From: Acidobacteriota bacterium
GTDB lineage: Bacteria; Acidobacteriota; UBA890; WLXD01
NCBI GenBank assembly: GCA_963666055.2
Contig: CAXWPH010000015.1
Span: forward strand, 1,056,001 to 1,120,000
DNA: 64,000 nucleotides
Reading direction: 5' to 3'
The stretch's first letter is position 1. The number at the start of each line of letters is the position of its first letter. Made by a program: the position numbers and the translations under genes. This document shows, in pieces, positions 1,136 to 24,432 of the stretch. The notes under the pieces were generated by a model. It made no database searches, was not told the origin of the DNA, and worked only from the letters and a program-made list of their open reading frames with translations.

Positions 1136-3901
1136 ATGGAACCCGGCACCAAACTAGGCCCCTACGAGATCACCGAGCAGCTCGGCGCGGGCGGCATGGG
1201 CGAGGTGTGGCTGGCCGAGGACACACGCCTGGGCCGCAAGGTGGCGATCAAGGTGCTGCCTGCGGAGTTCGCCTCCGACCCCGAGCGCCTGGCCCGTTTC
1301 GAGCAGGAAGCCCGTGCTGCCGCCGCTTTGAACCACCCGCACATCGCCTCGGTCTTCGATGTGGGCGTCGAAGACGGCACTCACTTCATGGTGCAGGAGT
1401 ACCTGGAGGGGGACACGCTCAGGGTGCCGCTAGGCAAGGGCGCACTGCCGCTCACGAAGGCACTCGGCCTGGCCACCGAGATCGCCGAGGCGCTGGCAGC
1501 GGCGCATGCTGCCGGGATCATCCACCGGGATCTGAAGCCGGAGAACATCTTCGTCACCAAGGAAGGCCACGCCAAGGTGCTGGACTTCGGGTTGGCGAAG
1601 TTGACCGAGGTGGCGGTGAGCGGGTCACCGGGCGGAGCAACGCAGTCACCCACGATGATGGGGACGGTGGCCGGTCAGGTGATGGGTACTGCCGGGTACA
1701 TGGCCCCGGAGCAGGTCGAGGGCTCCGACAAGATCGACCATCGGGCCGACCTGTTCGCCTTTGGCTGCGTGCTGTACGAGATGGTCAGCGGCAGGCGGCC
1801 CTTTGCCGGTACCAACGTGCACGAGACGCTGGGGCGTATCGTCGACAAGGATCCCGAGCCGCTTGCTGCGATCGATGCACGTTTGCCCGCCGAGGTGCAA
1901 CGGATCGCCAAGAAGTGCCTGGCCAAGGATCCGGGTCGTCGTTACCAGACCGCCACTGATCTGGCGGTCGATCTGCAAACCCTCAGGGCCGATGTCCAGG
2001 CTGGTCAGGCAGTGTCGGTCGGTGAGCTCAACCAACTGGGTGAATCGCGAGCAGCGGACGGCAGTGTTGCCGATGTGGCCAGCGGCCTATCCAAACGCAC
2101 GATTCCACTGAGATGGGCGGCGGCTCTCGTCGTGCTCAGTGCGTTCGCGGCAATGGCCGGCACCCGCGGCTTGATGACCTCCTTACCAGCATCCAACCAG
2201 CCTGTCGTGATGTTCGACATCGCGTTATCCGTGCCGTTCTCATACACGGGCCGACACATCTTAGATATTTCCAGCGACGGCACCGAGATCGTGATCGCAG
2301 CCGGAGCGCAGCTCCATCGGCGACGCACCGACGACGCGGATGCCCTCATCGCGATTCAAGGTACGGAAGGCGGCAGCCGAAGTCCGTTCATCTCCCCGGA
2401 TGGCACCGAGGTCGGTTTTTGGACCCCCGGACAAGCGGGAGGAGAGCTGCGGAAGGTATCGATCAACGGCGGTCTGCCGACGGTGCTATGCGCGGCGCTC
2501 AACCCGTGGGGCGCGACCTGGCTCGATGACGGCACCATTCTTTTCGGCCAGGGCAGCGAGGGGATCCTTCGCGTGTCTGCCGAAGGAGGAGATCCCGAGG
2601 TCGTCATAGCAGTTGCTGAAGGCGAGTGGGCGCACGGCCCGCGATTACTCCCGGACGGCGATTCCGTGCTCTTCACACTGCGAACAGGAACCGGTTCCTG
2701 GGACAATTCGCAGGTGGTCGTCGGCTCGTTGACCCATGACGATCGTCGTGTGCTCTTCGATGGCGGCACCGACGCGCGCTACCTGCCCACCGGACACATC
2801 GTCTATATCCGCGACGGAGTGCTCATGGCCCGTGTCGTCGACCTCGGCCGGCTCGAGGTCGGAGCCGAGACACGGCTGATGGACGGAGTCGCGCAGGCGC
2901 TGTCCAACCTCACCGGCGCCGGGCATTTCAATCTCTCTGCCAACGGCACACTCGCGTACGTGCAAGGGGCCGCGATGAGGTCGCGCGGTCCCCTTCCGGT
3001 CGTCTGGGTTGCCGACGGCACCGTTAGCGAGACGGTCTCCGGCGATCTCAACAGCGCGTCCCACCCGCGTCTGTCGCCGGATGAAAGCCACGTCGCCGTG
3101 ATGGTGACCGACGACGACGGCGTGAACTACGTCGAGGTTCAGGACCTGTCGCGTGGCATCTGGACACGATTGACGACCGAAGGCAACGGTCAGTTCCCGG
3201 TGTGGTCGCACGATGGTCGGAGCGTCTATTTCACCTCGAACCGCGGCGGAGAGCCGGCTATCTATCGACGGCCGATCGACTTCAGCAGGAGCGCCGAGGA
3301 AGTCTGGAGGCCGGGCGTGGAGGCGATTCTCGTGGTGGACTCAGCTTCCCGAGATGGCCGCTATCTCTTCACCACAGCCTTCCGCGACGCCACGCTCCCG
3401 CATACCTGGGTAGTACGGCTTGACCAGCCGCCGACCGCCCAGCCGCTCTTCGATGACGGCTTTCGCGGGCACGCACAGATTCATCCCAGTGGCAAGTGGA
3501 TCGCCTTCGTCAGCGAAGCGATCGGCGGACAGCCCGACGTTCTCGTGGCGGAGTTCCCCGTTGGCAGAACATGGCAGATTTCGTCCGGCCCCGGCGAGGA
3601 GCCGATGTGGTCCAGGGACGGCACCCAGCTCTTCTATCGCGAGGCCGAGAGGATGATGGCGGTGCATGTGGAAACAGATCCCGAGTTTCGGCCACAGGCA
3701 CCGCGTGAGCTGATAGCTCAATTCGTGGCCCCGACGCCCGTGGCCTGGATCGGCAGCGGCGGTTACGACGTCGCCGGCGATGGACGCTTTCTCACCACGA
3801 TCGGCACGCCCACTCGCCCCGAAGACGACGACACCCCGAGCGTTCGGGTGGTGCTCAACTGGTTCGACGAGCTGAAGCGGCTCGTGCCGACGGATCCGTA
3901 G
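1136..3901 (+). CDS. Hanks-type Ser/Thr protein kinase with TM segment and TolB/PD40 beta-propeller
   Basis: GAGGMGEV, VAIK, HRDLKPEN, DFG and YMAPE motifs. Hydrophobic segment, SPDG repeats, C-terminal VVLNWFDELKRLVP. Confidence 0.95.
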   Translation: MEPGTKLGPYEITEQLGAGGMGEVWLAEDTRLGRKVAIKVLPAEFASDPERLARFEQEARAAAALNHPHIASVFDVGVEDGTHFMVQEYLEGDTLRVPLGKGALPLTKALGLATEIAEALAAAHAAGIIHRDLKPENIFVTKEGHAKVLDFGLAKLTEVAVSGSPGGATQSPTMMGTVAGQVMGTAGYMAPEQVEGSDKIDHRADLFAFGCVLYEMVSGRRPFAGTNVHETLGRIVDKDPEPLAAIDARLPAEVQRIAKKCLAKDPGRRYQTATDLAVDLQTLRADVQAGQAVSVGELNQLGESRAADGSVADVASGLSKRTIPLRWAAALVVLSAFAAMAGTRGLMTSLPASNQPVVMFDIALSVPFSYTGRHILDISSDGTEIVIAAGAQLHRRRTDDADALIAIQGTEGGSRSPFISPDGTEVGFWTPGQAGGELRKVSINGGLPTVLCAALNPWGATWLDDGTILFGQGSEGILRVSAEGGDPEVVIAVAEGEWAHGPRLLPDGDSVLFTLRTGTGSWDNSQVVVGSLTHDDRRVLFDGGTDARYLPTGHIVYIRDGVLMARVVDLGRLEVGAETRLMDGVAQALSNLTGAGHFNLSANGTLAYVQGAAMRSRGPLPVVWVADGTVSETVSGDLNSASHPRLSPDESHVAVMVTDDDGVNYVEVQDLSRGIWTRLTTEGNGQFPVWSHDGRSVYFTSNRGGEPAIYRRPIDFSRSAEEVWRPGVEAILVVDSASRDGRYLFTTAFRDATLPHTWVVRLDQPPTAQPLFDDGFRGHAQIHPSGKWIAFVSEAIGGQPDVLVAEFPVGRTWQISSGPGEEPMWSRDGTQLFYREAERMMAVHVETDPEFRPQAPRELIAQFVAPTPVAWIGSGGYDVAGDGRFLTTIGTPTRPEDDDTPSVRVVLNWFDELKRLVPTDP

Positions 3902-3964
3902 CCGCTCAGATGACCCTCGGGATCGACGACGACGGGCCTCCAGCGCGGCTCGGGGTGAGCCTCG

Positions 3965-4696
3965 CTACGGGCGACTCTGTCGTTGCAACAACTCGGTCAA
4001 CCGATCGAGCGATGTGAGAAGGTCGGCCAGACCCCGGGCCGCGAAATCGCCGTAGAAATGCCTCACAGCCAGGGCACCGGCGAGCTCGCTCGAACGTCGA
4101 ACCGTCGCATAACCCGATACATCGACCTCGGGCTGCCCCATGAACCAAGGAAGCACCCGGTCGAAGTACGGACCCAGCTCGATGTCGCGGGCGAGTAGCG
4201 GGACCACCTGCTCGTTGACGATGGCGCGCACGACGTGCTCGTCCTCCGATGTGTCCACAAGGATCCGCCTCCAGTTGGCGAGCTCCCCTCGAATCTCATC
4301 GCTCTGGATCAGCTCGATGTCGCCCGAGGCCAGAGCCGCTTCCAGGGCATTCGCTACGGGCTCATAGGTCGACGCACCGATGACGGCGAGGACCAGCGGG
4401 TCCGGCACCTCCACAAGTCCACTGTCTCCCGTGGGAGCCACGAGATCTCGCATCAGCAGGTTGTCGCGAGTCTGCTTCTGCGTGCCCTCGAGGCGCTGCA
4501 GGAGGAGGGGCCGACTCGCCTGGAAGTCCGACAGGAGATCCGCCAGCAGTCCGGCCTCCCGAACTCGCTCGTTGCGCTCGTCCCACCAGGCATCGACAGC
4601 GAACGCCAGCAGGATGGACAGGACGACGGCAGCGCTGTCCGCCAGGAGCGGTCGCCACCGGATCTCCGATTGTCGAGCGCTTGCCTCGGGGGTCAT
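3965..4696 (-). CDS. Membrane-anchored hypothetical protein (DUF6090-like N-terminus)
   Basis: 243-aa ORF with N-terminal AVVLSILLAFAVDAWWDER TM motif followed by a helical domain. Confidence 0.7.
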   Translation of the reverse strand: MTPEASARQSEIRWRPLLADSAAVVLSILLAFAVDAWWDERNERVREAGLLADLLSDFQASRPLLLQRLEGTQKQTRDNLLMRDLVAPTGDSGLVEVPDPLVLAVIGASTYEPVANALEAALASGDIELIQSDEIRGELANWRRILVDTSEDEHVVRAIVNEQVVPLLARDIELGPYFDRVLPWFMGQPEVDVSGYATVRRSSELAGALAVRHFYGDFAARGLADLLTSLDRLTELLQRQSRP

Positions 4697-4803
4697 GCTC
4701 TAATACTGGCTGGTCTGCGTCGAACCAAGGCCGAAGCCTTGTGCTGTGGACGAACCTTGTGACTGTTTCGGTGATGCCGGCTACAACTTGCCAGGACAGC
4801 TGA

Positions 4804-5016
4804 CGCGACTCAAGAGCCGTCACCCGTCTTGAACTTCCGGCTCATCGCCTCCAGCGTCGTGTGAACCCGCCCTTCTTCGATAACCTCGATGTCAGGGCGG
4901 ACGGTCGCGTGCTCTTGCCCGACATTCGGCTCGAAGCCGGCCGGCCGCGCCAGCAAATCTACGTAGTTCTTCGCTGGGACCAAGAGGTAGTCAGCTTCGG
5001 TTCAACAGATCGCTGA
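4804..5016 (+). pseudogene. Orphan C-terminal fragment of a kinase-PD40 gene
   Basis: Start-less frame reads ...FDNLDVRADGRVLLP...QQIYVVLRWDQEVV...*, resembling the family end YDV-DGRFL...VVLNWFDEL. Confidence 0.6.
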
Positions 5017-5052
5017 GGCAGTGCGGAATCTTCCCGCCCCGATCGCTGCTCG

Positions 5053-5103
5053 GTGGTCAACTGGTTCGACGAGCTGAAGCGGCTCGTGCCGACGGACCCG
5101 TAG
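5053..5103 (+). repeat. Orphan copy of the kinase 3' tail (VVNWFDELKRLVPTDP*)
   Basis: 5057-5103 is identical to 19299-19345 (47/47) and matches 3855-3901 at 46/47. Confidence 0.95.
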
Positions 5104-5475
5104 CGCGCTCAGCCGAGTCTCGCGAGCGTTGACGGTGGTGCTGGGCTGCATCTCCCTCGGCTCCACCCCAGCCACCTCAGCGGCTTCCAGACGCAACGCT
5201 AGCTGCTGCTCTGGGATCGCCGTCGGTGTCGTTGCCAGCTTCGCCAGCGTGAGGTCGGCCAGCGTGCGGTTATTGCATTCCCGCAGTGCTGAGGAAGTCT
5301 CCAGCCAGATGCCGTCGACGTGGGCGATCTGGGTGGTTGGGGTGAGCTTCATGCGCGGGAGCCTACTCACCGTCGAGGACCCGACACCGAAAGCCCTCAC
5401 GCCAAGCCCGAAATCGGCTTGTACCACTTTAGTACCGATTCCAGGCCCCAGAGGGGTGTTTCAGGGGGTACAGAT

Positions 5476-6741
5476 CTACGGCCTTGGCAAGGATGTCTCT
5501 GATTGGCTTGCTGAAATATGGGAAGGGATGATCGGCTTATCGCGCTTCACGCGATAGCGGAACCATCCTTCCATCATCTCGTCGCGCGAGTCCCGACCAT
5601 AGACAACCTTCAGGCTCGGGTTCGGGTTTCGGGGATTGTTCTCGGAGTTGTCGAAGTGGGCAGTAACCCGAAGCTTTGTTCCCTTCGTTAGCGGCACAGG
5701 CTCCGCCAAGTAGTAGCTTAGCTGCCAGTTGAAATCGTAGTTCGGAACCGACAGCAGGATCTCTTCCCGGCCGTCTGGATAGATCACCTCGTACATCATG
5801 TCTTTGCCGCGATAGTGCATGTGGGGTTCGAGGCTTAGCAGCTCGACGTCGACGTCGAACTCCATCTCGGCGACGCTTTCATAATTCGGCTCGTACGGTG
5901 GGATCTCGATCTTCCGATCTCTGACAAGGCCGTCGCGAAGCACGTCGGTGATCGGATATCGTGCCAGCCAGACACCGACCTGGGCGCGATCGAATTCTTC
6001 CTGGCCACTCGGGTGGTAGTGCATATCGAACTGTAACGTCGATCCGGCCGGGATCACCTTGCCCGCGCCTTGCGGGAGAATGTGCGGGTGAAGTCCGGGG
6101 ATTATGTTGCCGACGTAGGTGGGGCTGCCGTCCGGACGTATCGCACTCACACTGCCGTGGTGAATCACCCGGGGATTGCCTCGCATCTCCACCGCCCTGG
6201 CCCAGATGTCCTCTGCGAGGTTTGCAGGCGCCGTGATGTGAGGGAATTGGTCCGGGCCACCCGCTGGAATGCGATACGGCTCTTCCATCTCGAAGATGTA
6301 GTCAGGTGGCCCAAGCTCGGCGCTGAGGGCCCAGCCCTCGACGAAGGCCGGCGGCGTGAATTCGCCCTCTCCCCGGGGAGCTCCCGCTGAGACCCACTCT
6401 ACGATCGTTCCGACCTGCTCGCTGGTCAGGCGGCGATCATTGGCAAACCGACCGTAGCGCGGATCTGCCTTCCACGGCGGCATGATCCGCTCGCGAACAA
6501 CTTGTCTGATCGACTTGGCCCAGGGGCGTACTTCCTCATAGGTCAACAGGGACATGGGAGCAACTTCCCCCGGTCGATGGCAGCTCATGCAGCTGTCCGC
6601 CAGTAGGGGGCCGACGTCGCGCGTCCACGTCGGCACGCTCGGTTCCTCGGCGCTTGATTGGCCGAGGCTGGCTCGACCGAGAGTCGCCACACCAACCGTC
6701 GCCACCAACGTCGCCACTGTTCCAACGAGGACTTTCCGCAT
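5476..6741 (-). CDS. Exported cytochrome c / copper type II ascorbate-dependent (PHM-like) monooxygenase
   Basis: Signal peptide, CMSCH heme motif, MPPW, and Cu-ligand motifs IHH, MHYH, PHMH and EMM. YDFNWQ also present. Confidence 0.8.
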   Translation of the reverse strand: MRKVLVGTVATLVATVGVATLGRASLGQSSAEEPSVPTWTRDVGPLLADSCMSCHRPGEVAPMSLLTYEEVRPWAKSIRQVVRERIMPPWKADPRYGRFANDRRLTSEQVGTIVEWVSAGAPRGEGEFTPPAFVEGWALSAELGPPDYIFEMEEPYRIPAGGPDQFPHITAPANLAEDIWARAVEMRGNPRVIHHGSVSAIRPDGSPTYVGNIIPGLHPHILPQGAGKVIPAGSTLQFDMHYHPSGQEEFDRAQVGVWLARYPITDVLRDGLVRDRKIEIPPYEPNYESVAEMEFDVDVELLSLEPHMHYRGKDMMYEVIYPDGREEILLSVPNYDFNWQLSYYLAEPVPLTKGTKLRVTAHFDNSENNPRNPNPSLKVVYGRDSRDEMMEGWFRYRVKRDKPIIPSHISASQSETSLPRP

Positions 6742-6799
6742 CGTGCTCTTCCCTCTGTTTCATGGCACGCCGTACCGTTCTCCAACTAACGGTCTGGGC

Positions 6800-7543
6800 T
6801 CAGCCTTCATCATCCTCCGGCGGTACCAGCTCGATCGTGTCGATCTCGATCTTCTCTCCCCTCCAGGTGCCCGCCACCCGCACCCTTTGGCCGGCGTAGC
6901 CCAGCAGCTCCTCTTCGAACTCCGCCGTATTGGTGAACTCGATGGCGATCCCGCCAAGTCGTGAGATCAGCGCCAGGTCCTCCGCCGAGTGCACACGTTC
7001 CCTCACCCAGGCGGCGGGGTCTTCGGCGTCCTCCGGCGGAGCGAGCTCCGTGCGGTGGCCGACCACGCCAGGGTGGTCCGTGTAGAACTCCTCAGGCTCA
7101 CCGACATAGAGCAGGCCCGTGTCCTGCCTGTTCCCTACGATCTCGAACTCGCCCAAAGGGCTAACGACGGTGCCCGTGACCCGATCGCCGTCGAGGCTGA
7201 GCGTGTACTCGTAGGCCCCGAACTCGACAAACATCGTGCCATCCTCCAAGCGGAAGTCATCGACTCCGACCAGGCTGTCAGCCACCGAGGTCATCTGGGC
7301 GAGCAACTCGCCGTCGGCTTCCTCCACTTTCAGAACGACCGTCTTGCCCGCACCCGAGGAGGGTGCCGCGGCGGGCATCATCTGACCCCCGAGGCGCCGC
7401 CCTGGGACTTCACTCGACTTCAGGTTCCAGGTGCCAACGGGGTCCGGCTCTGGTTCCATCGAGGCTGTGCAGGCCGCCAAGACGATGATGGCCAGCCCAG
7501 CAAACAGGGGGGGCCACAAGCCGCTTCGCAATGCTGTCCTCAT
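6800..7543 (-). CDS. Hypothetical lipoprotein
   Basis: Lipobox LAAC after a hydrophobic stretch. GGGAGG RBS upstream. Confidence 0.7.
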   Translation of the reverse strand: MRTALRSGLWPPLFAGLAIIVLAACTASMEPEPDPVGTWNLKSSEVPGRRLGGQMMPAAAPSSGAGKTVVLKVEEADGELLAQMTSVADSLVGVDDFRLEDGTMFVEFGAYEYTLSLDGDRVTGTVVSPLGEFEIVGNRQDTGLLYVGEPEEFYTDHPGVVGHRTELAPPEDAEDPAAWVRERVHSAEDLALISRLGGIAIEFTNTAEFEEELLGYAGQRVRVAGTWRGEKIEIDTIELVPPEDDEG

Positions 7544-10630: not shown

Positions 10631-10644
10631 CCTCGGGTTCGAGC

Positions 10645-10666: not shown

Positions 10667-10675
10667 AGAACGCTG

Positions 10676-14873: not shown

Positions 14874-16289
14874 ATGCAACTGGCATTAGGGATCAGCCTC
14901 GTCGTGTTCTTCACCCTCATGGTGGGGATCTCGATATGGGCAAGCAAGCGAATCCACACGGGCGAGGACTACATCGTCGCTGGCCGCCGCCTGTCGGGCA
15001 TCATGACGACGGCCACGATAATGGCCACCTGGTACGCCGCAGAGACCATCCTCGTCACCGCAGACACGGTACGAACCGACGGAATCCAGATAACGGTTCT
15101 CGAGCCTATCGGCATCGGACTCTGCCTGATCTTGGCCGGCGCGGTCTTTGCCCGGCGCCTTTGGGAAACGAAGCTCCTCACGCTTGCTGATGTCATCGGC
15201 GCGCGGTTCGGTACGATTGCCGAGAAGCTGCAGGCGTTCGTATCGATCAGCTACATCGGTTGGGTGGCGGTCCAGCTGCTGGGGCTTGCCGGCGTGCTCA
15301 ACGTCTATTTCGACCTGCCGATCTCGACGGGCGTCATCCTGATCACGACGGTGCTGACCCTGTACACGTTGGTCGGCGGCCTGTGGTCGGTCGCGATGAC
15401 CGACATCGTGCAGCTGGGCCTGCTGTTGATCGGTATCGTCATCCTCACGTTCCGTGTTCTTGCGGAGCTCGGTGACGGTCCGTTGTCCGGTACTGCCGCA
15501 CTGTTCGACCAGCTCGACGCCGAACTGCTCGTTTGGGTTCCCACCGGTTCGTTCGAAGAGATGCAAACGTGGGTCGGACTGATCTTCATTGGCGTGTTCG
15601 CCAACGTCGCGACGCAGGATCTCGCACAACGGATGTTCGCGGCGCGGTCCTCGAGAACCGCCGCACGCTCCACCGTCGCAGCCGGGATTCTGTACATCTT
15701 CTTCGGCGCGTTCCCGGTTCTCCTCGGACTTGCCGGCAACTTGCTTCTCGATGAGTCCGTGGTTCAGGGCGTCATCCCGGCATTGGCGGAGCAGCTATTT
15801 TCACCGACCCTCTCGGTCATCTTCGCGTTGACCCTCACGGCCGCGGTTACGTCCAGCGTAGACAGCGGGCTCTTGGCACCGGCCAGCGTCATAGCGCGGA
15901 ACGTCGTCGGCCCGATTCTCAAGGACCGGATCAGCCTCATTACCCTGACCCGAATCTCCGTCGTGGTCATTGCAGTGATCAGCGCCTGGCTGGCGCTGTC
16001 GGGCACGCGCGCCTTCGAGCTCATACAGGGCAGTTACGCCGCCACGCTGCCATCATTCATCGTGCTGTGGGCGGCGCTGTATCACAAGGAAGCACGCCCG
16101 ATACCCGGGACGCTGACACTGGTCGCCGGCATTGGCCTATGGCTCTATGAGATCATCCGCAACATCGCCTCGGGAGGCACGGACACGGAAGTGCTGTCGC
16201 CCGGTTTCCCCGTGATCTTGCTGGTGCTGTGCTTCGTGGTCTACTGGACCTCGCATTGGGTGGTCCGAAGGCTCGAGACGCGGGGCTAG
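14874..16289 (+). CDS. Sodium:solute symporter family transporter
   Basis: About 13 TM helices. DYIVAGR, YTLVGGLWSVAMTD and QRMFAA motifs. Confidence 0.92.
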   Translation: MQLALGISLVVFFTLMVGISIWASKRIHTGEDYIVAGRRLSGIMTTATIMATWYAAETILVTADTVRTDGIQITVLEPIGIGLCLILAGAVFARRLWETKLLTLADVIGARFGTIAEKLQAFVSISYIGWVAVQLLGLAGVLNVYFDLPISTGVILITTVLTLYTLVGGLWSVAMTDIVQLGLLLIGIVILTFRVLAELGDGPLSGTAALFDQLDAELLVWVPTGSFEEMQTWVGLIFIGVFANVATQDLAQRMFAARSSRTAARSTVAAGILYIFFGAFPVLLGLAGNLLLDESVVQGVIPALAEQLFSPTLSVIFALTLTAAVTSSVDSGLLAPASVIARNVVGPILKDRISLITLTRISVVVIAVISAWLALSGTRAFELIQGSYAATLPSFIVLWAALYHKEARPIPGTLTLVAGIGLWLYEIIRNIASGGTDTEVLSPGFPVILLVLCFVVYWTSHWVVRRLETRG

Positions 16290-16564
16290 CAGGCCGTGGT
16301 GAAAGTGTGGTGGGTCTGGCGACAGGGTCTTGCGAAGTGGAGGCAAGGAGAGAGGAGGTAGGCGATGGTTACCCCATCGTTGACGAGGAACGACGCAGCA
16401 TACGCGCGCAACCCCCTGTCGCCCGAAGGGTTACGGCGATTTGGGGCCATCTGCGATGTTGGCCTTTCTCGACGATGGCTAGGGCATCGCCTGTGTCAGG
16501 CCGCCTTGCATCTGGCCCCAACTCGCCGTAACCAGACCCACCACACTTTCACCACGGCCTGCTA
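16287..16564. mobile_element. 278-bp non-autonomous TIR element (MITE/REPIN-like), copy 1
   Basis: Perfect 33-bp TIR TAGCAGGCCGTGGTGAAAGTGTGGTGGGTCTGG. Internal hairpins. Homologous, in reverse orientation, to 54976-55252. Confidence 0.85.
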
Positions 16565-16595
16565 AGGGACGGCGAACACTACCGGGCGGCCTGCG

Positions 16596-16657
16596 TTGGA
16601 TCTCGTCTCCTGTGGCTGTAGGCTTCACGCGCTCACCCACCTCCCTCTGGTCGCGCC
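16596..16657 (+). promoter_or_regulatory. Sigma70-like kinase promoter TTGGAT-N17-TAGGCT plus leader
   Basis: Hexamers at 16596-16601 and 16619-16624, conserved upstream of the kinase starts. Confidence 0.75.
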
Positions 16658-19345
16658 ATGGAACCTGGTACTCGACTCGGCCACTACGAGATCCTCGCCC
16701 CACTCGGTGCAGGCGGTATGGGACAGGTGTACCGAGCACGCGATAACACCCTGGATCGTGATGTCGCCATCAAGGTGCTGCCGGAGGACTTCGCCACCGA
16801 CCCCGAGCGGCTGGCTCGCTTCGAGCGCGAAGCCAAGCTCCTCGCCTCGCTGAACCACCCCAACATCGCCACCATCCACGGGTTCGACGAGTCCGACGGT
16901 GTCCGCTTCATCGCCATGGAGCTGGTGGAAGGTCAAAGTCTCGTCGAGAGGATCGAAGCGACGGGTCGGATCGAGCTCGACGAGGCACTGGAGATCGCCC
17001 GCCAGATCGCGCTGGCGCTCGAAGCCGCCCACGAGGCCGGCGTCATCCATCGCGACCTGAAACCCGCCAACGTCCAGGTCGCACCTGATGGTGCGGTCAA
17101 GGTGCTCGACTTCGGGCTGGCTAAAGCCTACGAAGCGGACGCCAACGAGCCGTCAGCGGAACTAAGCCAATCGCCCACGATGATGGGGGCAACGGGAGCC
17201 GGCGTGATCATGGGGACGGCCCCCTACATGAGTCCAGAACAGGCGCGGGGCAAGCCGGTCGATAGGCGCAGCGACATCTGGGCCTTCGGCTGCGTGTTCT
17301 ACGAGATGTTGACGGGTCAACCGGCATTCAGCGGCGAAACCGCGACCGACACCCTGGCGGCGATTGTGCACGAAGAGCCGGACTGGGCCACTGTGCCAGA
17401 AGCGGTGCCAGCGATCATTCGGCACCTGTTGCGCCGATGCCTTGTGAAGGAACCGCGTGACCGTCTCCACGACATCGCCGATGCTCGCATCGAGATCATC
17501 AGCGCCGTCAGTGAGCCTGAGAGAGACTTCGCCGCCGTCACACCTGTGTCAGTTCGATCCTCTGGTTGGCGCCTAGCAGCACCCTGGCTCGTCGCTGCTG
17601 CCGCAGTTGTGGCCGGTGGCATTGGTACTTTCGGGGGTTGGGCACTCTACGAGCCGGCACCGGTCGCATCTCTGCCCCCGACCCGCTTCTCGGTGAACCT
17701 GCCAGCGCCCATCAGCAACACTGGGGTCGGCCCTCAAGTGGTATCCGCCATCTCATCAGACGGCCAGCGCATGGTATTTGCGCTGCAAGAAGGCGGCAGC
17801 ACGCGGCTCTACCTACGGGAAATGGACGCTACCGAAGCGGTACCGATCGCGGGCACCGAGGGAGGACGCTCCCCCTTCTTCTCCCCTGATGGCGACTCGA
17901 TCGCCTTCCATGATGGCATCCAGCTCAAGCAGGTCTCTCTGACGGGCGGTGGCCCGCTGACAATTACCCCCACTGCGGGCAATTTATTAGGTGGCTTCTG
18001 GGATGAAGACGACTGGATCTACTTTGCTACCAACATCATTCAGGCGCCGATGCGTGTTCCAGCCGCGGGAGGTCAGGCTGAGGAAATAGCAGCGGAGGGG
18101 ACCAAGCGGGTCGGCGGTCTGTACGCCTGGCCACAGCTTCTGCCCGACAAGGAAACGCTGCTGGTTACCGTGTACGAGGCAGATCAGGATTTCTGGAACA
18201 TCGCTCTAATATCACTGGTGACCGGAACAGAGAGGAGTCTCGGGCCTGGCGGCGGCGCCCGGTACTTGGCCTCAGGCCACCTCGTCTACACACAGCCCAC
18301 CGGCCGGGGGCGCCAGGGCACCTTCCCGGTCGTGATCGCGCCCTTCGACCTCGAACGGCTAGAGATCTCTGGCCCTGTCGTTCGGTTGCCTTTCGATGTC
18401 GCTTCGAGTTGGGGATATCCCGCTTTGTCTAGCTCCCGTAACGGCACGCTTGTCTACTTACCGCAGCCCGTCAACGCCCAGAGGTTGGCGTGGGTACAGC
18501 GCGATGGCAGCTCCACGCTTCTCGACATCGAAGGAGGTCAACTCCACGCTCCACGGCTCTCTCCCGAGGGCAGCCGGGTGGCTGTATCCGAAAACGCATT
18601 TGATCTGCTCACCTTTGATCTTGAGGGACGAGCGGTCGTCCACACGGGCGCCTCGGTAGGCGGAACAATCACGTACCCCGTCTGGAGCAATGACGGCAAT
18701 CGGCTGCTGTTCACGTCCAACACGAGTGGACCGTTGAATATCTATTCCTCTGCGGTGGACGGAAGCGATCTGGAGTTGCTCGTCGAGACTGAGACTCCCA
18801 TAGTTCCAACGTCGTTGTCGGAGGATGACACCCTGCTTTTTTACGAGGTCACTGCCACGCGAGGGCGCGACATCTGGGTGCTTCCGCCTGATGGCCCCCC
18901 TGTGCCCGTGCTGGCAACACCGGCCAACGAGCGTGCGCCAGCGTTTGCCCCCGGCGGCCGCTTCTTCGCCTACGTATCAGATGAAGAAGGGCAAGACGAG
19001 GTCTACGTACGGCGATACCCCGATACCGGTACCCGGTGGAAGGTCTCAGCAGGCGGTGGCCGTGGGCCAATGTGGTCACCCCTTGGACACGAGATTTTCT
19101 ATGCGATCGGCGACAGGATGATGGCGGTACCTGTCCAAACCGAGCCCAGCTTCCAGTCGGGCAGGCCAGTGGAGCTCTTTGAATCGCGCTTCACCCTCGA
19201 TCAGTTCGGCAACGCGAATTACGACATCGCCGATGATGGTCAGCGTTTTCTGATGGTCCAAGAGACAGCGCCGCCACTGACCCAGGTTCCGGTGATCATC
19301 AACTGGTTCGACGAGCTGAAGCGGCTCGTGCCGACGGACCCGTAG
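16658..19345 (+). CDS. Ser/Thr protein kinase with TM and TolB/PD40 beta-propeller
   Basis: Full kinase motif set (HRDLKPAN, DFG, YMSPE), PD40 repeats, NWFDELKRLVPTDP end. Confidence 0.95.
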   Translation: MEPGTRLGHYEILAPLGAGGMGQVYRARDNTLDRDVAIKVLPEDFATDPERLARFEREAKLLASLNHPNIATIHGFDESDGVRFIAMELVEGQSLVERIEATGRIELDEALEIARQIALALEAAHEAGVIHRDLKPANVQVAPDGAVKVLDFGLAKAYEADANEPSAELSQSPTMMGATGAGVIMGTAPYMSPEQARGKPVDRRSDIWAFGCVFYEMLTGQPAFSGETATDTLAAIVHEEPDWATVPEAVPAIIRHLLRRCLVKEPRDRLHDIADARIEIISAVSEPERDFAAVTPVSVRSSGWRLAAPWLVAAAAVVAGGIGTFGGWALYEPAPVASLPPTRFSVNLPAPISNTGVGPQVVSAISSDGQRMVFALQEGGSTRLYLREMDATEAVPIAGTEGGRSPFFSPDGDSIAFHDGIQLKQVSLTGGGPLTITPTAGNLLGGFWDEDDWIYFATNIIQAPMRVPAAGGQAEEIAAEGTKRVGGLYAWPQLLPDKETLLVTVYEADQDFWNIALISLVTGTERSLGPGGGARYLASGHLVYTQPTGRGRQGTFPVVIAPFDLERLEISGPVVRLPFDVASSWGYPALSSSRNGTLVYLPQPVNAQRLAWVQRDGSSTLLDIEGGQLHAPRLSPEGSRVAVSENAFDLLTFDLEGRAVVHTGASVGGTITYPVWSNDGNRLLFTSNTSGPLNIYSSAVDGSDLELLVETETPIVPTSLSEDDTLLFYEVTATRGRDIWVLPPDGPPVPVLATPANERAPAFAPGGRFFAYVSDEEGQDEVYVRRYPDTGTRWKVSAGGGRGPMWSPLGHEIFYAIGDRMMAVPVQTEPSFQSGRPVELFESRFTLDQFGNANYDIADDGQRFLMVQETAPPLTQVPVIINWFDELKRLVPTDP

Positions 19346-19473: not shown

Positions 19474-21684
19474 ATGGATAGAGACTTGGATTCTGCGCGT
19501 TTCAAGGCGCTCGCGCTGACGGCGGCGTGCCTTTGCCTGTCGAGCGTCGCCGTTGCTGGTTCGCATGCTGAGGCCCGGCACCCGCTGCTGCAGGAGCCGA
19601 CGCAGTCGGGGCAAACCCCGACGTTCCGCTCCGCCGTCACTCGCGTCCGCGTCGACACGTTGGTCACCGACGGCGACGGCAACTTCATCGACAACCTGAC
19701 AACGGAGGATTTCCGCCTGCTCGAAGACGGGGTCGTGCAGGAGATTACCGGCGTTCAACTGGTCCGCGTGGAGAGTGGACGGGTCACGAGCGTCGGCTCC
19801 CGTGGCTCGAGTGGGCCGGCTCCCGAGATGTGGAGCGCTGCCACCCTCGGGGCGATCGTCTACTTCGTCGATCAGCCGAGCCTCGATCGGTCCGCTCATC
19901 CAAAGCTGTCGCAGGCGTTCCGAGATCTGTTCGAGGGAGAGGGGGATCTGGCGATCCCGCGCGGCGTGTTCATGCTCGGCGACGGCGGCATGCTGCGCCA
20001 GCTGGCACCGTTGACGACCGATCGAGATGCGTTGCGGAACGCTGCTCGCCTGGTGATCGACGCCGGGCCGTCGAGCGACTCGATCTTCGATCGCATGAGC
20101 CGCGAGTACGCCCCCATGATGAAGATGGCGCTCGATGTACTGAACTCCCCCGGAAGTTCGCCGTTGAAACTCCGCGAAGTGGTCCACAGCGTGGAGCGAA
20201 AGGCGAAGAGGGATGGCGAGCTGGCGCGACAGCGCCTCGGACACACGTTGCGTCAGCTCACCGAGCTTACCCATGCTCTTTCGGTCATGGAGGGCCGGAC
20301 GGCCCTGGTGTGGATCTCGTCGGGCGCCATGATCACCGAAAGCGGACCCTTCGGCGCCTTCGCCGTGGCAGTGCAAGAGACCGTGGCCGCGAACATGGGC
20401 GGCTCGAACCTCACCTGGTCATCGCCCGACCCGAGGGTGCTCGAAATGATGGCCACTCTGGTCGAGGCCGCCAACAGCGGCAACGTCAGCATCTACACCA
20501 TCGACCCCCGACCGATCTCGGAGCTCGGCGCGCTGGGCACCCGGGCAGCGGTCGGAGACAACCAGGTGGCCAGGGCGCTGCGCCGAAACATACGCCCGGC
20601 GTACGCTCAGTTGACGGCTCCACTGACGGAGGTAGCGGCTAGCACGGGAGGCCGATCGTTTATCGGCTGGGCTCAGCTCGACCAAGCCTTCCAGGAGCAG
20701 TACGTCGACTCGACGCAGTTCTACACGATCTTCTACCAGCCGCCGGGGCCTCACGAGGACGGCGAGTACCATGAGATCCAGGTCCAGGTCGACGTTCCGG
20801 GCGTCGAAGTGCGGGCGCGCCCGGGGTACCGGGAGCTGCCGGCTTCGGCACGGCTCAGGCGCAAGGTCACCGCGGCACTGGCGTTTCCGGAGTCCGTGGC
20901 GGGTCGACCTGTGCCAGCGCAAGCGTTCCATCGATTCGCCTCAGACGGCTCTTCGAGCATCCTACTGGTCATCGGGTTGCCGGGACAGGAGGAAACGGTT
21001 CTCGGCAGCTGGGCGCCCGCCTTCAGGACCGTCGACGCCCAAGCGGGGATGGACGAGCAGGCGATTCAGCGACTCGGTATCTCGCGCTTCGAGGTGCACG
21101 CCGTCGCCTTGAGTAGCGACGGTGAGCTGGGCGGACAGATCCATACGACAGTGACACCTGATGCCGCGGCGGGACCGCAGCCCACAGCGACCCCGGCACG
21201 ATTCTCTAACTACGTGAGGGAAATGCGGGTGGACCCGGGTGTCTATGACGTGCGCATGTTCGTCAGCGAGGTAGCGGGCGATCGCATCGGCACCGCCAGG
21301 CTAGAGGTCGAGGTGCCGCCTAGCCAGGATCGCTGGCTCATCGCCGACCCCATGCTCGTTGCCGTGGACACCGAAGCCAGGATACTCCGGCCGCTGCTGA
21401 CCTCGGCCGTTCGTGCCGGCCTTCAGCTTGCCACGAGCGTGCAGGTCAGTGGCGCGGCCAGCCCGCAGGTCGCGCTCACGGTTCGTCGCCAGGGGATCGA
21501 CGCACCCATCGCAGAGGTTTCGCCAACCGCCCTGCCGCTCGTATATCCGGGTATCCATGGGGGTATTGTGCCGTTGCCCTATCTGGACCCGGGTCAGTAC
21601 CTGGTCGAGCTGAAGATCGTCGATGTGGCAGCGGAACAACAGGCAGTGCGCCTGTTCTCCCTGCGGGTAACGGAGACCGGGTGA
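19474..21684 (+). CDS. Acidobacterial VWA-domain protein
   Basis: PTFRSAVTRVRVD, EDFRLLEDG, GRTALVWISSG, IYTIDPR, TGGR and VRARPGY motifs. Signal peptide. Confidence 0.88.
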   Translation: MDRDLDSARFKALALTAACLCLSSVAVAGSHAEARHPLLQEPTQSGQTPTFRSAVTRVRVDTLVTDGDGNFIDNLTTEDFRLLEDGVVQEITGVQLVRVESGRVTSVGSRGSSGPAPEMWSAATLGAIVYFVDQPSLDRSAHPKLSQAFRDLFEGEGDLAIPRGVFMLGDGGMLRQLAPLTTDRDALRNAARLVIDAGPSSDSIFDRMSREYAPMMKMALDVLNSPGSSPLKLREVVHSVERKAKRDGELARQRLGHTLRQLTELTHALSVMEGRTALVWISSGAMITESGPFGAFAVAVQETVAANMGGSNLTWSSPDPRVLEMMATLVEAANSGNVSIYTIDPRPISELGALGTRAAVGDNQVARALRRNIRPAYAQLTAPLTEVAASTGGRSFIGWAQLDQAFQEQYVDSTQFYTIFYQPPGPHEDGEYHEIQVQVDVPGVEVRARPGYRELPASARLRRKVTAALAFPESVAGRPVPAQAFHRFASDGSSSILLVIGLPGQEETVLGSWAPAFRTVDAQAGMDEQAIQRLGISRFEVHAVALSSDGELGGQIHTTVTPDAAAGPQPTATPARFSNYVREMRVDPGVYDVRMFVSEVAGDRIGTARLEVEVPPSQDRWLIADPMLVAVDTEARILRPLLTSAVRAGLQLATSVQVSGAASPQVALTVRRQGIDAPIAEVSPTALPLVYPGIHGGIVPLPYLDPGQYLVELKIVDVAAEQQAVRLFSLRVTETG

Positions 21685-21731
21685 TGGGCAGCTGAGTCTC
21701 GCGAGCCGCGCCACGCGTTCCGCGTAGTTTA

Positions 21732-22604
21732 GTGGCGCCCCCCACTGAAGGAGCATCAAAGGTGAGTCAAGCGATTCGGTCGAAGCTTGCAGTTCATCAC
21801 GTCTTCGCAGATGCGTCCGTGCCCTTGCTGCTCATGGCAGTGGCGGTGACGATGATCGCCTGCAGCCCGACAGGCCAGCCATCGACATCGGAAGAGCCCA
21901 CTTCAGCGTCGCCACGGGATTCGGTCGTGACGGTGTTAGATCGCTCCGTCCTCGATGACCCTACGCGCCCCGATGCCGACCGCACCGAGGATAACGACCG
22001 CAAAGCGATCGATGTCTACGAGTGGCTGGGCATGCAGCCAGGCATGACGGTTGCAGATCTGTGGCCTGCCGAGGGTTACAACACTCACTTGATGTCACGC
22101 TTGATGGGCGCTGACGGGCACGTGTTGAGTGTCCTGGGTTTCTTCGGTCTGGACACCGACTACTCCACCAGGGAAGGCCTGCAGCAGCGTATCCAGGACC
22201 ATGGCCTGAGCAACGTCGAGCTACTCGACAAGCTTGCGGATATGAAATCGGAGAGCGTCGACGTGATGGTCGCGGTGCGCAACTATCACGATCTCGGGAC
22301 CGTCCCTGGCCCCTCGCGCCCCGAGGCAGTGGCCGAGATGCACCGAGCCCTGAAGCCGGGTGGAGTCGTGGGCATCGTCGAGGCAGCCAGCGACAAGCCG
22401 GGATGGGACCCGGAGGCGCATCGCCTCAACGAGCAGACCGTAATCGACGAGTTCACCGCCGGGGGCTTTGAGCTCTCAGGGCGTTCCGCCATGCTGGCGA
22501 ACCCAGCGGACGACCGTAGCGCCTCCGGCTTCGAGGAGGGCACCTACGACGGCCGCTACGACACCGATCGCTACCTGTTGAAGTTCACCAAGCCGACCAG
22601 CTGA
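21732..22604 (+). CDS. SAM-dependent methyltransferase lipoprotein
   Basis: PGMTVADL..GY, RNYHD and LKPGG motifs. Lipobox IAC. Stop codon lies inside a kinase-tail repeat. Start uncertain. Confidence 0.85.
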   Translation: MAPPTEGASKVSQAIRSKLAVHHVFADASVPLLLMAVAVTMIACSPTGQPSTSEEPTSASPRDSVVTVLDRSVLDDPTRPDADRTEDNDRKAIDVYEWLGMQPGMTVADLWPAEGYNTHLMSRLMGADGHVLSVLGFFGLDTDYSTREGLQQRIQDHGLSNVELLDKLADMKSESVDVMVAVRNYHDLGTVPGPSRPEAVAEMHRALKPGGVVGIVEAASDKPGWDPEAHRLNEQTVIDEFTAGGFELSGRSAMLANPADDRSASGFEEGTYDGRYDTDRYLLKFTKPTS

Positions 22605-22622
22605 AGCGGCTCGTGCCGACGG
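22594..22622 (+). repeat. Kinase-tail repeat copy
   Basis: CGACCAGCTGAAGCGGCTCGTGCCGACGG, 28/29 to the kinase 3' tail. Confidence 0.9.
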
Positions 22623-22763: not shown

Positions 22764-22802
22764 GGTCCCTACGAGCTCATCAAGCCGCTCGGTACCGGCG
22801 GA
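22764..22802 (+). pseudogene. Tiny kinase N-terminal remnant
   Basis: Translates GPYELIKPLGTGG, compared with GPYKILEPLGAGG in the kinase at 52342. Confidence 0.55.
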
Positions 22803-22906
22803 GCACAAGTTGCTGGTAGAGTCCGAGAGTCGAACCACCGGCTTCGGCAGACTCCCGATCGCCTATTATCCGTTGCGCCCGTCGGGCGAAACGACAGGGG
22901 AGTGAC

Positions 22907-23545
22907 ATGAGAGTTCTATTGGCAACCGCGCTGATCCTGGCGCTGCCTACGGTGGCGCCGGCGGCGCTCAGCCAGCTTCCGAAGGACGGCGCCGAGGCGA
23001 TGGCGTACTACGAAAGCGATCCCGACGACTGGCTGGATGGTCCGGTGGAGTACCTGATCCTCGACGAGGAGCGCGAGGTGTGGAAGGAGCTACGGACCTC
23101 CGACCAGCGCGCCTCCTTCATCACCCGTTTCTGGGATCGTCGTGACATCGATCTGCGGGTACAGGGAAACCCGTTCAAGGGCGCATTCTACGAGCGCGTC
23201 GCCTACGCCAACCGCAGGTTCCGGGACACGCGGTTTCGCGGCTGGAGGTCCGACCGCGGCCGCATCGCGGTGACGCTCGGGGTGCCTGATGGCGAGCGGC
23301 CCATCCGCGCTGGCACTGTGCTCATCTGGACATACCTCACGATCGGCGCTCATGCCGAGGAGAAGGGCTTCAGTAGCGTTAGCGGCCGAGTGGAGATCGC
23401 CTTCGAGGCGGACGAGCTCAGGCCCAACAACTACGCGATCGCCGGCTCGCTGGGCACCGGGATCTACCCTGCGTACGTGCTCCGTGCGCTCGAATACAGC
23501 CGCCATGCCGCGGTCGGCGAGGCGACGAACCGCCCCGTCTCCTGA
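22907..23545 (+). CDS. GWxTD domain-containing protein
   Basis: FWDRRD, YERVAYANRRF and GWRSDRGRI..LGVP motifs. Signal peptide. Confidence 0.88.
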   Translation: MRVLLATALILALPTVAPAALSQLPKDGAEAMAYYESDPDDWLDGPVEYLILDEEREVWKELRTSDQRASFITRFWDRRDIDLRVQGNPFKGAFYERVAYANRRFRDTRFRGWRSDRGRIAVTLGVPDGERPIRAGTVLIWTYLTIGAHAEEKGFSSVSGRVEIAFEADELRPNNYAIAGSLGTGIYPAYVLRALEYSRHAAVGEATNRPVS

Positions 23546-23614
23546 GGGTTCGGCTTGGCGCGCAGATAGGGAATCTCGGCGGTAGTCGCTGACGCTGCCA
23601 CGCCAGACCGGGAT

Positions 23615-23636
23615 CGAGCTGAAGCGGCTCGTGCCG
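23615..23636 (+). repeat. Kinase-tail repeat copy
   Basis: CGAGCTGAAGCGGCTCGTGCCG, 22/22 to the kinase tail. Confidence 0.85.
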
Positions 23637-23664
23637 CAGCAACGCCTGCCTGTAAACTCGAGCC

Positions 23665-24285
23665 ATGATCAAGGAACCGGTGCGCCCAGCAGATAAGCGC
23701 AAGATCCGCGTCATCGCCTGCGGCATGATTGCCCGTGAAGTCATGGCGGTAAACGCGCAGTTGGGTTTTGACTATGTCGACCTGAAGTGCCTGCCGGCGG
23801 ACTATCACTATCATCCGGAAAAAATTGCCCCGGCTATGGACATCGCGATTCACAAGGCGCGTGCTGATGGGTATCAACATGTATTCGTCGGCTACGCCGA
23901 CTGCGGTACCTGCGGCGAGCTGGATGAAGTGTGCGAAAAGCATGGTGTGTCACGCATAGAAGGGCCGCATTGCTTTTCGTTCTACATGGGCAATCAAGCC
24001 TTCAAAGAAGCAGACGGTGCCTATCTGACGACATTCTTCATCACAGATTTCTTGGCACGCCACTTCGATGCGTTCCTGAAGCGCCCACTGGGCCTCGACC
24101 GGCATCCGGAACTGTTGGAGATGTATTTCGGCAACTACACAAAGGCGCTCTACATCGCCCAGACCGATGATCCACAACTGGACGAGCGAGCGCGCGAAGC
24201 GGCAGAATTTCTAGGTCTCGAGTATGAACGACGCTTTACCGGCTACGGAGATCTGGTCCCGGCGCTGGCAGAAATCGCGCGCTAA
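23665..24285 (+). CDS. DUF1638 domain-containing protein
   Basis: VIACG, YADCGT.G.LD, GPHC and PLGLDRHPEL..MYFGNY motifs. Visibly lower GC. Confidence 0.85.
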   Translation: MIKEPVRPADKRKIRVIACGMIAREVMAVNAQLGFDYVDLKCLPADYHYHPEKIAPAMDIAIHKARADGYQHVFVGYADCGTCGELDEVCEKHGVSRIEGPHCFSFYMGNQAFKEADGAYLTTFFITDFLARHFDAFLKRPLGLDRHPELLEMYFGNYTKALYIAQTDDPQLDERAREAAEFLGLEYERRFTGYGDLVPALAEIAR

Positions 24286-24432
24286 GAGCCGTGATGTCCT
24301 GAAGTCGAACTGGCTCGTGGATGCAGCTCGCTAGGTCTCCCGATGCATGGTAAGGGGACTGCGTGATCGCCTGCACGAGCAGTGAAGTCGTTTGAACCGG
24401 CTTCCCACGGAAGCCATACGGGAGAGAAGGCA

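Follow-up and report, generated by a model that had tools for sequence, protein, structure and literature searches.

Conserved ends of a kinase-propeller gene family persist as graded stumps and likely act as homology arms in an acidobacterial genus

Kinase-propeller genes and pieces of them in the window

The window analysed here is a stretch of 64,000 nt on contig C15 of an Acidobacteriota genome termed G000 (C2, C5, C8, C13 and C15 are its contigs, and G001-G004 its four congeners). It contains two intact genes of a Ser/Thr kinase-propeller family (A and B), a third member at its end, and short pieces of such genes interspersed with other ORFs (Table 1). The family is characterized by an N-terminal Pkinase domain and a C-terminal PD40/TolB-like propeller, and the intact genes are ordinary members of the Hanks-type Ser/Thr kinases with TolB-like (PD40) propellers of Acidobacteriota; in this genus, however, stumps outnumber intact genes by about 3:1. 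The gene labels of a first-pass annotation (kinase with PD40 at 1136-3901 and 16658-19345, methyltransferase, GWxTD, DUF1638, and VWA, i.e. TIGR03436) were all recovered. Its label of membrane gene for 3965-4696 is putative, the ORF having no match in Pfam or NCBIfam.

Table 1. Kinase-family features and neighbouring genes in the window
Position	Strand	Feature	Remarks
1136..3901	+	Kinase-propeller gene A, intact, 921 aa, Ser/Thr kinase-TolB-like	Pfam Pkinase + PD40
3855..3901	+	Tail within gene A, reads NWFDELKRLVPTDP-stop	
3965..4696	-	Cargo ORF, 243 aa	No Pfam or NCBIfam match
4876..5016	+	Tentative stump, diverged kinase C-terminus	BLASTP E=0.003 to last 43 aa of kinase B
5053..5127	+	Orphan tail (5057-5103) with ~24-nt conserved post-stop motif	
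5128..5473	.	Repeated fragment, adjoins tails in congeners too	No Pfam or NCBIfam match
5476..7543	-	Two-gene module	All four congeners have it at other loci
10603..10642	+	Short piece from inside a kinase domain, located at module junction beside MITE end	Repeat family D14
16286..16564	.	CTAG-site MITE, outside the tail system	123 genome copies
16594..16657	+	Family leader, non-coding and conserved, ahead of gene B	Promoter-like by eye only
16658..19345	+	Kinase-propeller gene B, intact, 895 aa	Kinase + PD40 matches
19299..19345	+	Tail within gene B	Predicted last strand (874-881) and helix (883-890)
19474..21684	+	VWA protein	TIGR03436; in G003 directly after symporter gene
21689..21706	+	Post-stop motif alone, tail eroded away	
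21732..22604	+	Methyltransferase	Stop codon inside partial tail 22594..22622
22594..22622	+	Partial tail	Junction common to congeners
22907..23545	+	GWxTD protein	
23615..23636	+	Partial tail	Tail-DUF1638 junction also in G001, G003, G004
23665..24285	+	DUF1638 protein	
24293..24334	+	Probable stump of diverged kinase-family C-terminus, reads DVLKSNWLVDAAR-stop	
36989..37241	+	Head stump (leader + 42 codons), then degenerate tail; collapsed gene	
41410..41448	+	Leader-only stump	
61726..64000	+	Third family member	Tail just past window end, C15:1120316

The annotation had also reported that the 47-nt 3' end of these kinases recurs as a direct repeat around unrelated genes, and had proposed it as a hot spot and possible attB-like capture site. 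The copies are as it described, all on the + strand: 3855-3901 matches 19299-19345 at 46/47 positions, 5057-5103 at 47/47, and the partial tails match at 28/29 (22594-22622) and 22/22 (23615-23636). The segment 24308-24319, tentatively taken for a tail with an internal deletion, is better assigned to 24293-24334, probably the end of a diverged paralogue, because the G002 version carries about 120 more bases that by eye read as the last propeller blade. The 47-nt repeat codes for a conserved, predicted strand-helix at the C-terminus of the family: the motif [ND]WxxEL lies within the last 28 aa in 92/120 homologues, and N882, W883, E886 and L887 are each at least 90% conserved (75 sequences). 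A non-coding repeat of the REP/MITE type was considered and rejected, given this protein motif, the third-position bias described below and the lack of excess fold.

The leader of gene A is conserved from about 1065 (alignments of relatives begin at 1065-1070); a promoter scan called 0 sigma-70 sites at its threshold in 16594..16657, so that the promoter reading of the leader is by eye only. The family HMM misses the tentative stump 4876..5016, and the collapsed gene at 36989..37241 was recognized by HMM at its head (E=1e-6) and by eye at its tail piece. No match of the cargo ORF 3965..4696 is listed in five relatives.

Support for the junctions was sought in short-read unitigs drawn from two studies, one of which may be the source sample. 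Unitigs bridge 19316-23795, 3872-5086 and 23980-24873 with 0-2 differences, so the junctions there are not chimeras; the unitigs break, however, inside the three full 47-nt copies, so the links across these rest on the assembly. That the junctions are artefacts joined at the repeat is a negligible prospect: such breaks would fit it, as would the hints of some assembly noise given by an exact inverted duplication, on C8, and by numerous frameshifts, but the junctions between partial tails and cargo are bridged by unitigs from both studies, and the same junctions are present in independently assembled congeners. The window is base-identical in runs from the two studies, and therefore no ongoing rearrangement was seen. 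The search for excised circles covered contigs, where joints inside the repeat fit more than one locus; the joint 3901 -> 5071 does not count as a sign of excision, as other tail loci fit it equally.

Graded heads and tails across the genome

A tail search at a score of at least 17 gave 102 sites in the genome and 4 in the reversed genome, so the repeat far exceeds chance; among the 102, one site is counted twice, four copies belong to an exact duplication on C8, and a few hits are weak. Of the copies, 26 are on full-length genes, and the rest are graded stumps (40 to ~1,900 nt). The 60 tail remnants measure 40-1,881 nt, 44 of them at most 176 nt, and both their left and right junctions are variable. 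The gene start leaves stumps as often as the gene end: of 85 matches confined to the head, 54 are short stumps that stop within 483 nt. Substitutions in 35 orphan tails fall mostly at third codon positions (12/11/38), and hence the orphans derive from the coding ends of many paralogues. At one locus the same stump is ~290 nt long in G000 and G002 and ~24 nt in G003 and G004. A convergent gene that would account for the post-stop motif by its 3' end was looked for at 19 tails, but no long ORF ends there.

Neighbouring family features are co-oriented in 111/129 pairs, and for 23/61 tail-only features the nearest upstream feature is a same-strand head. The gaps between these heads and tails contain ORFs without a kinase-family match in 18 of 23 cases, often with a single gene occupying most of the gap; the genes include enzymes of other families and lie on either strand. 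A member of another family of the order, G012, shows the same kind of orphans, although its tail variant is a different one (short orphans make up 11 of the 27 tails inspected; the windows from relatives were centred on known tails, and such fractions are not genome-wide rates).

Direct repeats bracketing 1-3 kb cargo modules are known from tRNA-targeting integrative elements (attL/attR) and integron cassettes, and this much is shared here: the repeats at 3855 and 5057, and at 19299, 22594 and 23615, bracket cargo and leave the target gene intact. However, no fixed core, linked integrase or attC-like fold accompanies them, and the cargo lies in both orientations. The attB-like site is unsupported because neither a left boundary nor a crossover point is fixed: stumps of 40-1,881 nt represent exactly the graded kinase remnants that the first-pass annotation had named as evidence against it. 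Its remark that the window encodes no integrase is correct for the 48 ORFs scanned, the nearest match lying ~67 kb before the window, and no tRNA gene was found in the window either. The tail with its post-stop motif contains no attC-like palindrome (fold z-scores -0.4 to 0.55), and instead of co-oriented promoterless cassettes, as in integrons, the gap ORFs occupy both strands, 3965-4696 being opposite to the tails.

A trans-acting recombinase that recognizes the tail as its true site, e.g. via a 6-bp inverted repeat with a 7-bp spacer, is accordingly very improbable. The tail-cargo-tail layout, the pairing of this inverted repeat in the centroid fold and one fold-back junction of two tails via the repeat (C2:361834) would agree with it, but the graded junctions, without a fixed boundary, largely refute it; besides, 8/35 orphans carry a common GAC-to-GAG change that disrupts the left arm without compensation, the tail folds no better than shuffles (z about 0), heads behave alike, and another family has the pattern with a different tail variant.

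Tyrosine-integrase islands at tRNA genes could also carry kinases close to their ends, where tandem accretion and decay would yield repeats and the tail would be only linked to true att sites. The genome has 29 Phage_integrase matches, and some post-stop motifs lead into short direct repeats resembling integrase arm sites and, at C5:65697-65890, into a tRNA 3' fragment. Nevertheless this explanation is improbable: the direct-repeat pattern was matched at only 3 tails, with two more related by eye, the window lacks both tRNA and integrase, and neither head stumps nor single genes between head and tail are predicted. These data suggest that the shuffled tails are mostly far from any att remnant.

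Synteny breaks and reassortment at conserved ends

The pieces in the window lie next to variable DNA in the congeners. Many congener matches stop at 5127, the end of the post-stop motif, and in G001 a kinase tail is found within ~80 nt ahead of the 5476 module, the kinase being another paralogue and the join imprecise. The slot of gene B has different content in each congener, the DNA downstream of the partial tail 22594..22622 occurs in four arrangements in five genomes, and that upstream of 23615..23636 is different in each of G001, G003 and G004.

Twenty-six island windows contain 87 synteny breaks, compared with 15 in 20 control windows. Both flanks are syntenic with a congener at only 3/26 tails and 2/29 heads, compared with 65/151 other island ORF ends and 121/158 control ends, the last taken from the output of a crude ORF caller; the deficit has Fisher p values of 0.002 for tails and 0.0001 for heads, although kin are not independent. 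Island gene ends outside heads and tails are shuffled too (only 65/151 syntenic). MITE copies, used as a control for shuffling, offered only 6 island and 6 control cases.

Reassortment is seen most directly at the tail C8:37999, whose upstream flank is shared with one G002 site and whose downstream flank is shared with another G002 site and with C13:45191 of G000. Among the orphans with a shared upstream flank, 9/26 keep the tail in register in both genomes, with homology ending 32-77 nt inside the tail; G000 has no tail in register in 17/26 upstream-shared and 14/24 downstream-shared cases, and therefore many junctions are illegitimate or eroded. Cassette A is found at three different loci in three species, with one cargo junction kept and its end at the tail stop, while its heads belong to different kinase subfamilies and switch near the GxGGM-YLA motif. 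Among 39 head-gene-tail shells examined in relatives there was no clean pair of an intact kinase and a shell between the same flanks; only one locus has both flanks syntenic in G000, where a 617-nt unrelated segment without head or tail is found, which a double crossover does not explain.

The tail also differs from the rest of the gene. Where the residue is the same, the codon is the same too at a frequency of 0.91 for the tail, against 0.54 for the kinase domain and 0.39 for the propeller (6 genes), and genes A and B are 0.96 identical over the tail but 0.58 over the kinase domain. Among 14 genes, how similar two propellers are shows no correlation with the identity of the kinase (rho -0.03) or the tail (rho -0.06), although near-saturated propeller alignments lower the correlations.

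Could decay alone account for these observations? In that case, the stumps would be the last remains of deleted kinases beside essential neighbours, breakpoints would gather where junk tolerates them, and the likeness of tails would reflect protein constraint and recent duplications. Graded lengths at both ends, head-tail fusions, the third-position bias, the stepwise erosion of one stump and the lack of a clean empty/filled pair agree with this explanation, but it leaves unexplained the excess of synonymous identity in the tail over the kinase domain, the tail identity of A and B, the four-way reassortment of flanks at one tail and the chimeric heads on one cassette; we consider it rather unlikely. 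Sequence comparison supports the tail as a rearrangement hot spot, as the first-pass annotation had proposed: synteny across it is lost in congeners, flanks reassort and synonymous sites are homogenized. Of its two suggested routes, recombination driven by homology fits these data, and the site-specific one found no support.

Proposed portable homology arms and related systems

The reading that we favour, with a probability of roughly 0.6, is that the coding 3' ends of this much-expanded family persist as graded stumps, together with head stumps, and serve as portable homology arms through which recombination of the ordinary homologous or the homology-facilitated kind reshuffles their neighbours. 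Conservation covers the first ~45 and the last ~15 codons but not the intervening propeller, and deletions or replacements with one end inside the kinase have produced heads, tails, head-tail fusions and head-gene-tail shells. Judging from sequence footprints, crossovers may occur in 50-150 nt of head and 47-70 nt of tail, and would connect one site's upstream flank with the downstream flank of a different site. Such events would homogenize tails, exchange the propellers of intact kinases, and carry modules of one to a few genes to other loci and to other species of the genus. RecA would be the enzyme and incoming DNA the substrate, and kinases may first arrive at new loci as passengers of tRNA-integrated islands.

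ComEC, DprA and MutS are encoded in the genome; they are common, and weak as support for RecA-type exchange. The tail length speaks against homology arms, since efficient exchange by RecA would call for more than 47-70 nt, and so do the presence of MutS and the fact that stumps, as junk tolerating any break, would alone be enough to raise the breakpoint counts. The missing pair of intact kinase and shell, the junctions without a tail in register, the shuffling at other island gene ends and the identity of the window in both studies' runs weigh against them too.

The pattern is best read as a variant of the anchor recombination described for Rhs and lpl genes. As in those systems, a conserved intragenic anchor is found in paralogues, graded fragments form direct repeats, and the variable region is decoupled (propeller versus kinase, with the saturation noted above); the orphan modules, however, are not alternative domains, as the 18 of 23 gaps without a kinase-family match indicate. 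In the part of the Rhs study considered here, C-terminal displacement arrays contain paralogue fragments of varying length as direct repeats, and the conserved part, decoupled from the variable one, was proposed as an anchor for homologous recombination (Jackson et al. 2009, PMC2935791). Rhs orphans, by that account, carry the variable toxin tip and remain downstream of their own gene, whereas here the orphans are conserved ends, both ends are left at ~100 dispersed sites, and the filler consists of unrelated metabolic genes. For effector-immunity displacement in the Vibrio T6SS, homology-facilitated illegitimate recombination was proposed (Kirchberger et al. 2017, PMC5361080); there too, according to the sections drawn on, a homologous anchor and an illegitimate junction add foreign genes stepwise without an integrase, but at three fixed loci and with one cargo class, in contrast to the many dispersed signalling-gene anchors and arbitrary cargo seen here. 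In the lpl tandem cluster, which lies on a genomic island of Staphylococcus aureus, a conserved stretch in each paralogue is the crossover site by which variable regions are shuffled from gene to gene (Tsuru and Kobayashi 2008, PMC2568036), but the portion of that paper used here presents one central anchor in one tandem array and describes no orphan anchors around unrelated genes. A literature search covering few subscription journals and no supplements found no paper on kinase-end remnants in Acidobacteriota.

We put forward, as a tentative extension of the homology-arm reading, an integrase-free cassette system, in which ~100 paired head and tail arms per genome swap propellers, and genes that land in kinases become cassettes able to recombine into a family site of any congener, maybe with the leader as promoter; it would have arisen in at least two families of the order, with a distinct tail variant in each.

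If decay alone operates here, the finding is an ordinary one. However, the accessory genes of flexible islands often change places singly, with no transposase or integrase alongside, and if stumps of an ordinary signalling-gene family supply the homology, they offer a concrete and testable way in which single genes could be exchanged inside a species and across species. Pseudogene debris would then gain an active role, and the swapping of sensor domains in Acidobacteriota kinases would be linked to gene capture.

Kinase tails in the window and their surroundings

The tail, the conserved 47-nt 3' end of the kinase-propeller genes, recurs in the window as counted in the first-pass annotation (46/47, 47/47, 28/29 and 22/22 identical positions, all on one strand), and the repeat-bearing genes were correctly taken for kinases, their products being Pkinase + PD40 proteins. 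Named best homologues and the TIGR03436 match, which belongs to the VWA protein, point to Acidobacteriota. The copy at 24308, tentatively regarded as a tail with an internal deletion, by eye more plausibly represents the terminus of a diverged paralogue, which is longer in the congener G002. The repeat codes for NWFDELKRLVPTDP-stop; 92 of 120 homologues have an [ND]WxxEL motif among their last 28 residues, and in the predicted structure (mean pLDDT 87.5) the last strand comprises residues 874-881 and a helix residues 883-890. No excess folding of the tail was found.

That the repeats are assembly chimeras has a negligible probability, as unitigs from sequencing runs in two studies, one of them possibly on the source sample, bridge 19316-23795, 3872-5086 and 23980-24873 with 0-2 differences; they break inside full 47-nt copies, so links across full copies depend on the assembly. 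Both studies give an identical window, hence rearrangement is slow or absent at present.

Features of the window (bare coordinates) and of other parts of the genome (contig:position)
Feature	Location	Remarks
Kinase A	1136-3901	tail 3855-3901
Kinase B	16658-19345	tail 19299-19345
Other tails	5057-5103; 22594-22622; 23615-23636	
Collapsed kinase gene	36989-37241	
Repeated fragment	5128-5473	comes after tails in G001 and G002; part 5393-5459 multi-copy in G004 and G007
Peptidase S15 gene	10676-12532	GC 0.50-0.55 against 0.64 in surroundings; 95% identical in G002
CTAG-site MITE	16286-16564; 54975-55252	~280 bp; 123 genome copies
MITE fragments	10645-10667; 26681-26858	
MITE copies at a kinase tail's stop codon	C15:1120316; C14:410820	
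FAD oxidoreductase paralogues	28652-30777; 43199-45338; 32623-34890	two of three 92-95% identical, with common upstream DNA
43-nt inverted repeat	32469-32764	arms separated by 210 nt; probable further small element
Nitrile hydratase alpha and beta subunit genes	55419-56782	
Tandem kinase pairs (examples)	C6:270577; C14:44302	
Head-to-head tails	C2:361834-361880	fold-back junction via the tail's internal 6-bp inverted repeat
Inverted duplication	C8:31000-41000 / 55600-65200	exact, ~10 kb, several kinases inside; real or assembly artefact
tRNA-like gene	C5:65608-65890	CTA anticodon call; short direct repeats; tRNA 3' fragment
Reassorted tail	C8:37999	related site C13:45191
Cassette A	C15:905.2-907.5 kb	

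An end resembling the inverted repeat was seen twice upstream of the methyltransferase gene in G004.

Graded remnants of both gene ends

Tail sites scoring at least 17 number 102 in the genome against 4 in the reversed genome, the former including one double count, four copies from the C8 duplication and a handful of weak matches. Classed with a DNA profile built from 14 intact kinase genes, 26 sites belong to full-length genes (frame unbroken in 15), 60 to remnants of 40-1,881 nt, and 16 are too short or diverged to score. The head, i.e. the gene start with its conserved leader (promoter-like by eye; a promoter scan gave 0 calls), leaves remnants as the tail does: there are 85 head-only matches, 54 of which end within 483 nt, the longer ones probably belonging mostly to other kinase classes. 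Heads joined directly to tails are also present. Among 35 orphan tails, differences fall on codon positions 1/2/3 as 12/11/38, which means that orphans derive from the coding tails of many genes.

The stumps are graded even at one locus (~290 nt in the genome under study and G002 against ~24 nt in G003 and G004), and such remnants, a pattern that the first-pass annotation itself had named as refuting its reading, rule out the fixed att-like core of the proposed attB-like capture site, which makes a site-specific recombination site very improbable. As reported previously, the window is free of integrases (0 among 48 ORFs scanned), and no tRNA was found in it; elsewhere in the genome there are 29 integrase matches, and att-like remnants follow a few tails. 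The tRNA-like gene on C5, situated beside the conserved motif that follows tail stop codons, looks like the end of an integrative element. At many loci kinases form tandem pairs in which the first gene has a second tail subtype, ending TGGS, that runs over the start codon of the second gene; hybrids of the two subtypes end TDGS.

The pattern extends beyond this genome (head/core/tail counts 93/61/82, against 48/30/35 in G002, 42/58/17 in G007 and 37/37/32 in G012). In G012, which belongs to a different family of the same order, 27 of 32 tail matches were examined; 11 of these are short orphans carrying their own lineage's variant, three of them identical.

Broken synteny, reassorted flanks and homogenised tails

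Synteny with G002 is broken 87 times in 26 island windows, 24 of which contain a tail, and 15 times in 20 evenly spaced control windows; collinear blocks enclose 2 of 36 tails, and 16 of 228 block ends are no more than 100 nt from a tail, where random placement gives 4.2 (500 draws, maximum 12). To control for intergenic position, the comparison was restricted to features for which one or both flanks could be mapped; synteny held on both sides at 3/26 tails (9 more unmappable) and 2/29 heads (8 unmappable), against 65/151 other island ORF ends (55 unmappable) and 121/158 control ORF ends (33 unmappable), with Fisher p values of 0.002 and 0.0001 that are overstated because the sites are non-independent and the ORF caller is crude. 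The tail thus stands as the rearrangement hot spot it was proposed to be. Several tail-bounded blocks are 96-99% identical to G002, against 90-93% in most control windows, which suggests recent exchange between species. Simple linkage of tails to island ends we regard as improbable; island genes are also reshuffled at non-tail ends, which counts against a role of tails as anchors.

Flanks are reassorted at the tail C8:37999: the upstream one is 97% identical to a G002 site whose downstream side differs, and the downstream one matches a second G002 site and C13:45191 at 94-95% identity, each of these with a different upstream side. The stretches of the relatives that were analysed contain 87 tails, 62 of them short orphans. 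Upstream DNA is shared with our genome by 26 orphans, none of which runs through as one block; in nine the tail is in register in both genomes and homology stops 32-77 nt into it, and 17 have no in-register counterpart, two of these being the same locus with a shorter stump. Among 24 downstream-shared cases one runs through, nine have the tail in both genomes and 14 do not. Over half of the shared-flank cases lack an in-register tail, which again counts against the anchor model, and passive debris of decayed kinases, although unlikely, retains appreciable weight. The ends are conserved and the tail is homogenised: where residues are identical, the codon is also the same in a fraction of 0.91 for the tail, 0.63 for the head, 0.54 for the kinase domain and 0.39 for the propeller (6 TDP-type genes). 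Between kinases A and B the tail reaches an identity of 0.96 and the kinase domain 0.58. The identity of the propeller does not correlate with that of either the kinase or the tail (14 genes; near saturation).

Head-gene-tail shells and the proposed recombination

A same-strand head is the nearest upstream feature for 23 of 61 tail-only features, and 111 of 129 neighbouring pairs are co-oriented. Three of the 23 gaps have kinase-family or propeller matches, two are near-direct fusions and 18 contain other ORFs, often a single gene filling most of the gap; the 18 include at least one false shell, in fact an intact kinase-TPR gene. Pfam matches were obtained for 12 of 21 gap ORFs, including a sulfatase, an M28 peptidase, a GCV_T-SHMT fusion and an FAD oxidoreductase; the latter family is the one with three paralogues in the window. 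Cassette A occupies three different loci in our genome, G003 and G004, with a common head-cargo junction and identity that stops at the tail stop; its upstream heads come from different kinase subfamilies, switching near a GxGGM-YLA motif. Cassette B has the same head switch and an unrelated right end. No intact-kinase and filled-shell pair between identical flanks was found among 39 shells, and the sole shell locus with syntenic flanks corresponds to a site in our genome without head or tail, which likewise counts against the anchor model. An integrase-free cassette system on head and tail arms is a tentative reading, somewhat less likely than not.

Gene-sized blocks of the window each map to different places in the congeners G001-G004. 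The symporter-VWA interval is empty in G003 and holds the MITE and kinase B in our genome, other genes in G004, and in G002 a head stump with a transposase-like ORF, which we take to be IS110-type. The methyltransferase-tail junction is common to five genomes with four downstream arrangements, and the tail-DUF1638 junction to four genomes with different upstream DNA in each. In G001 the tail of a different kinase paralogue lies ~80 nt upstream of the 5476 module; the 3965 ORF and the second tail are absent there.

The proposed process resembles Rhs tip displacement (PMC2935791), the proposed HFIR of Vibrio T6SS arrays (PMC5361080) and lpl shuffling (PMC2568036) in the way it works. It does not belong to these systems, because in it the anchors are the orphans themselves and the filler is unrelated. 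No literature on stumps of this kinase family was found, supplements aside. ComEC, DprA and MutS are present in the genome; being common, they carry little weight.

We favor, with a probability of roughly 60%, the view that kinase ends act as crossover arms in homologous or homology-facilitated recombination. The kinases may first have been carried by tRNA-integrated islands, and crossovers at heads and tails, with RecA as the putative enzyme, would swap propellers and carry adjacent genes along.
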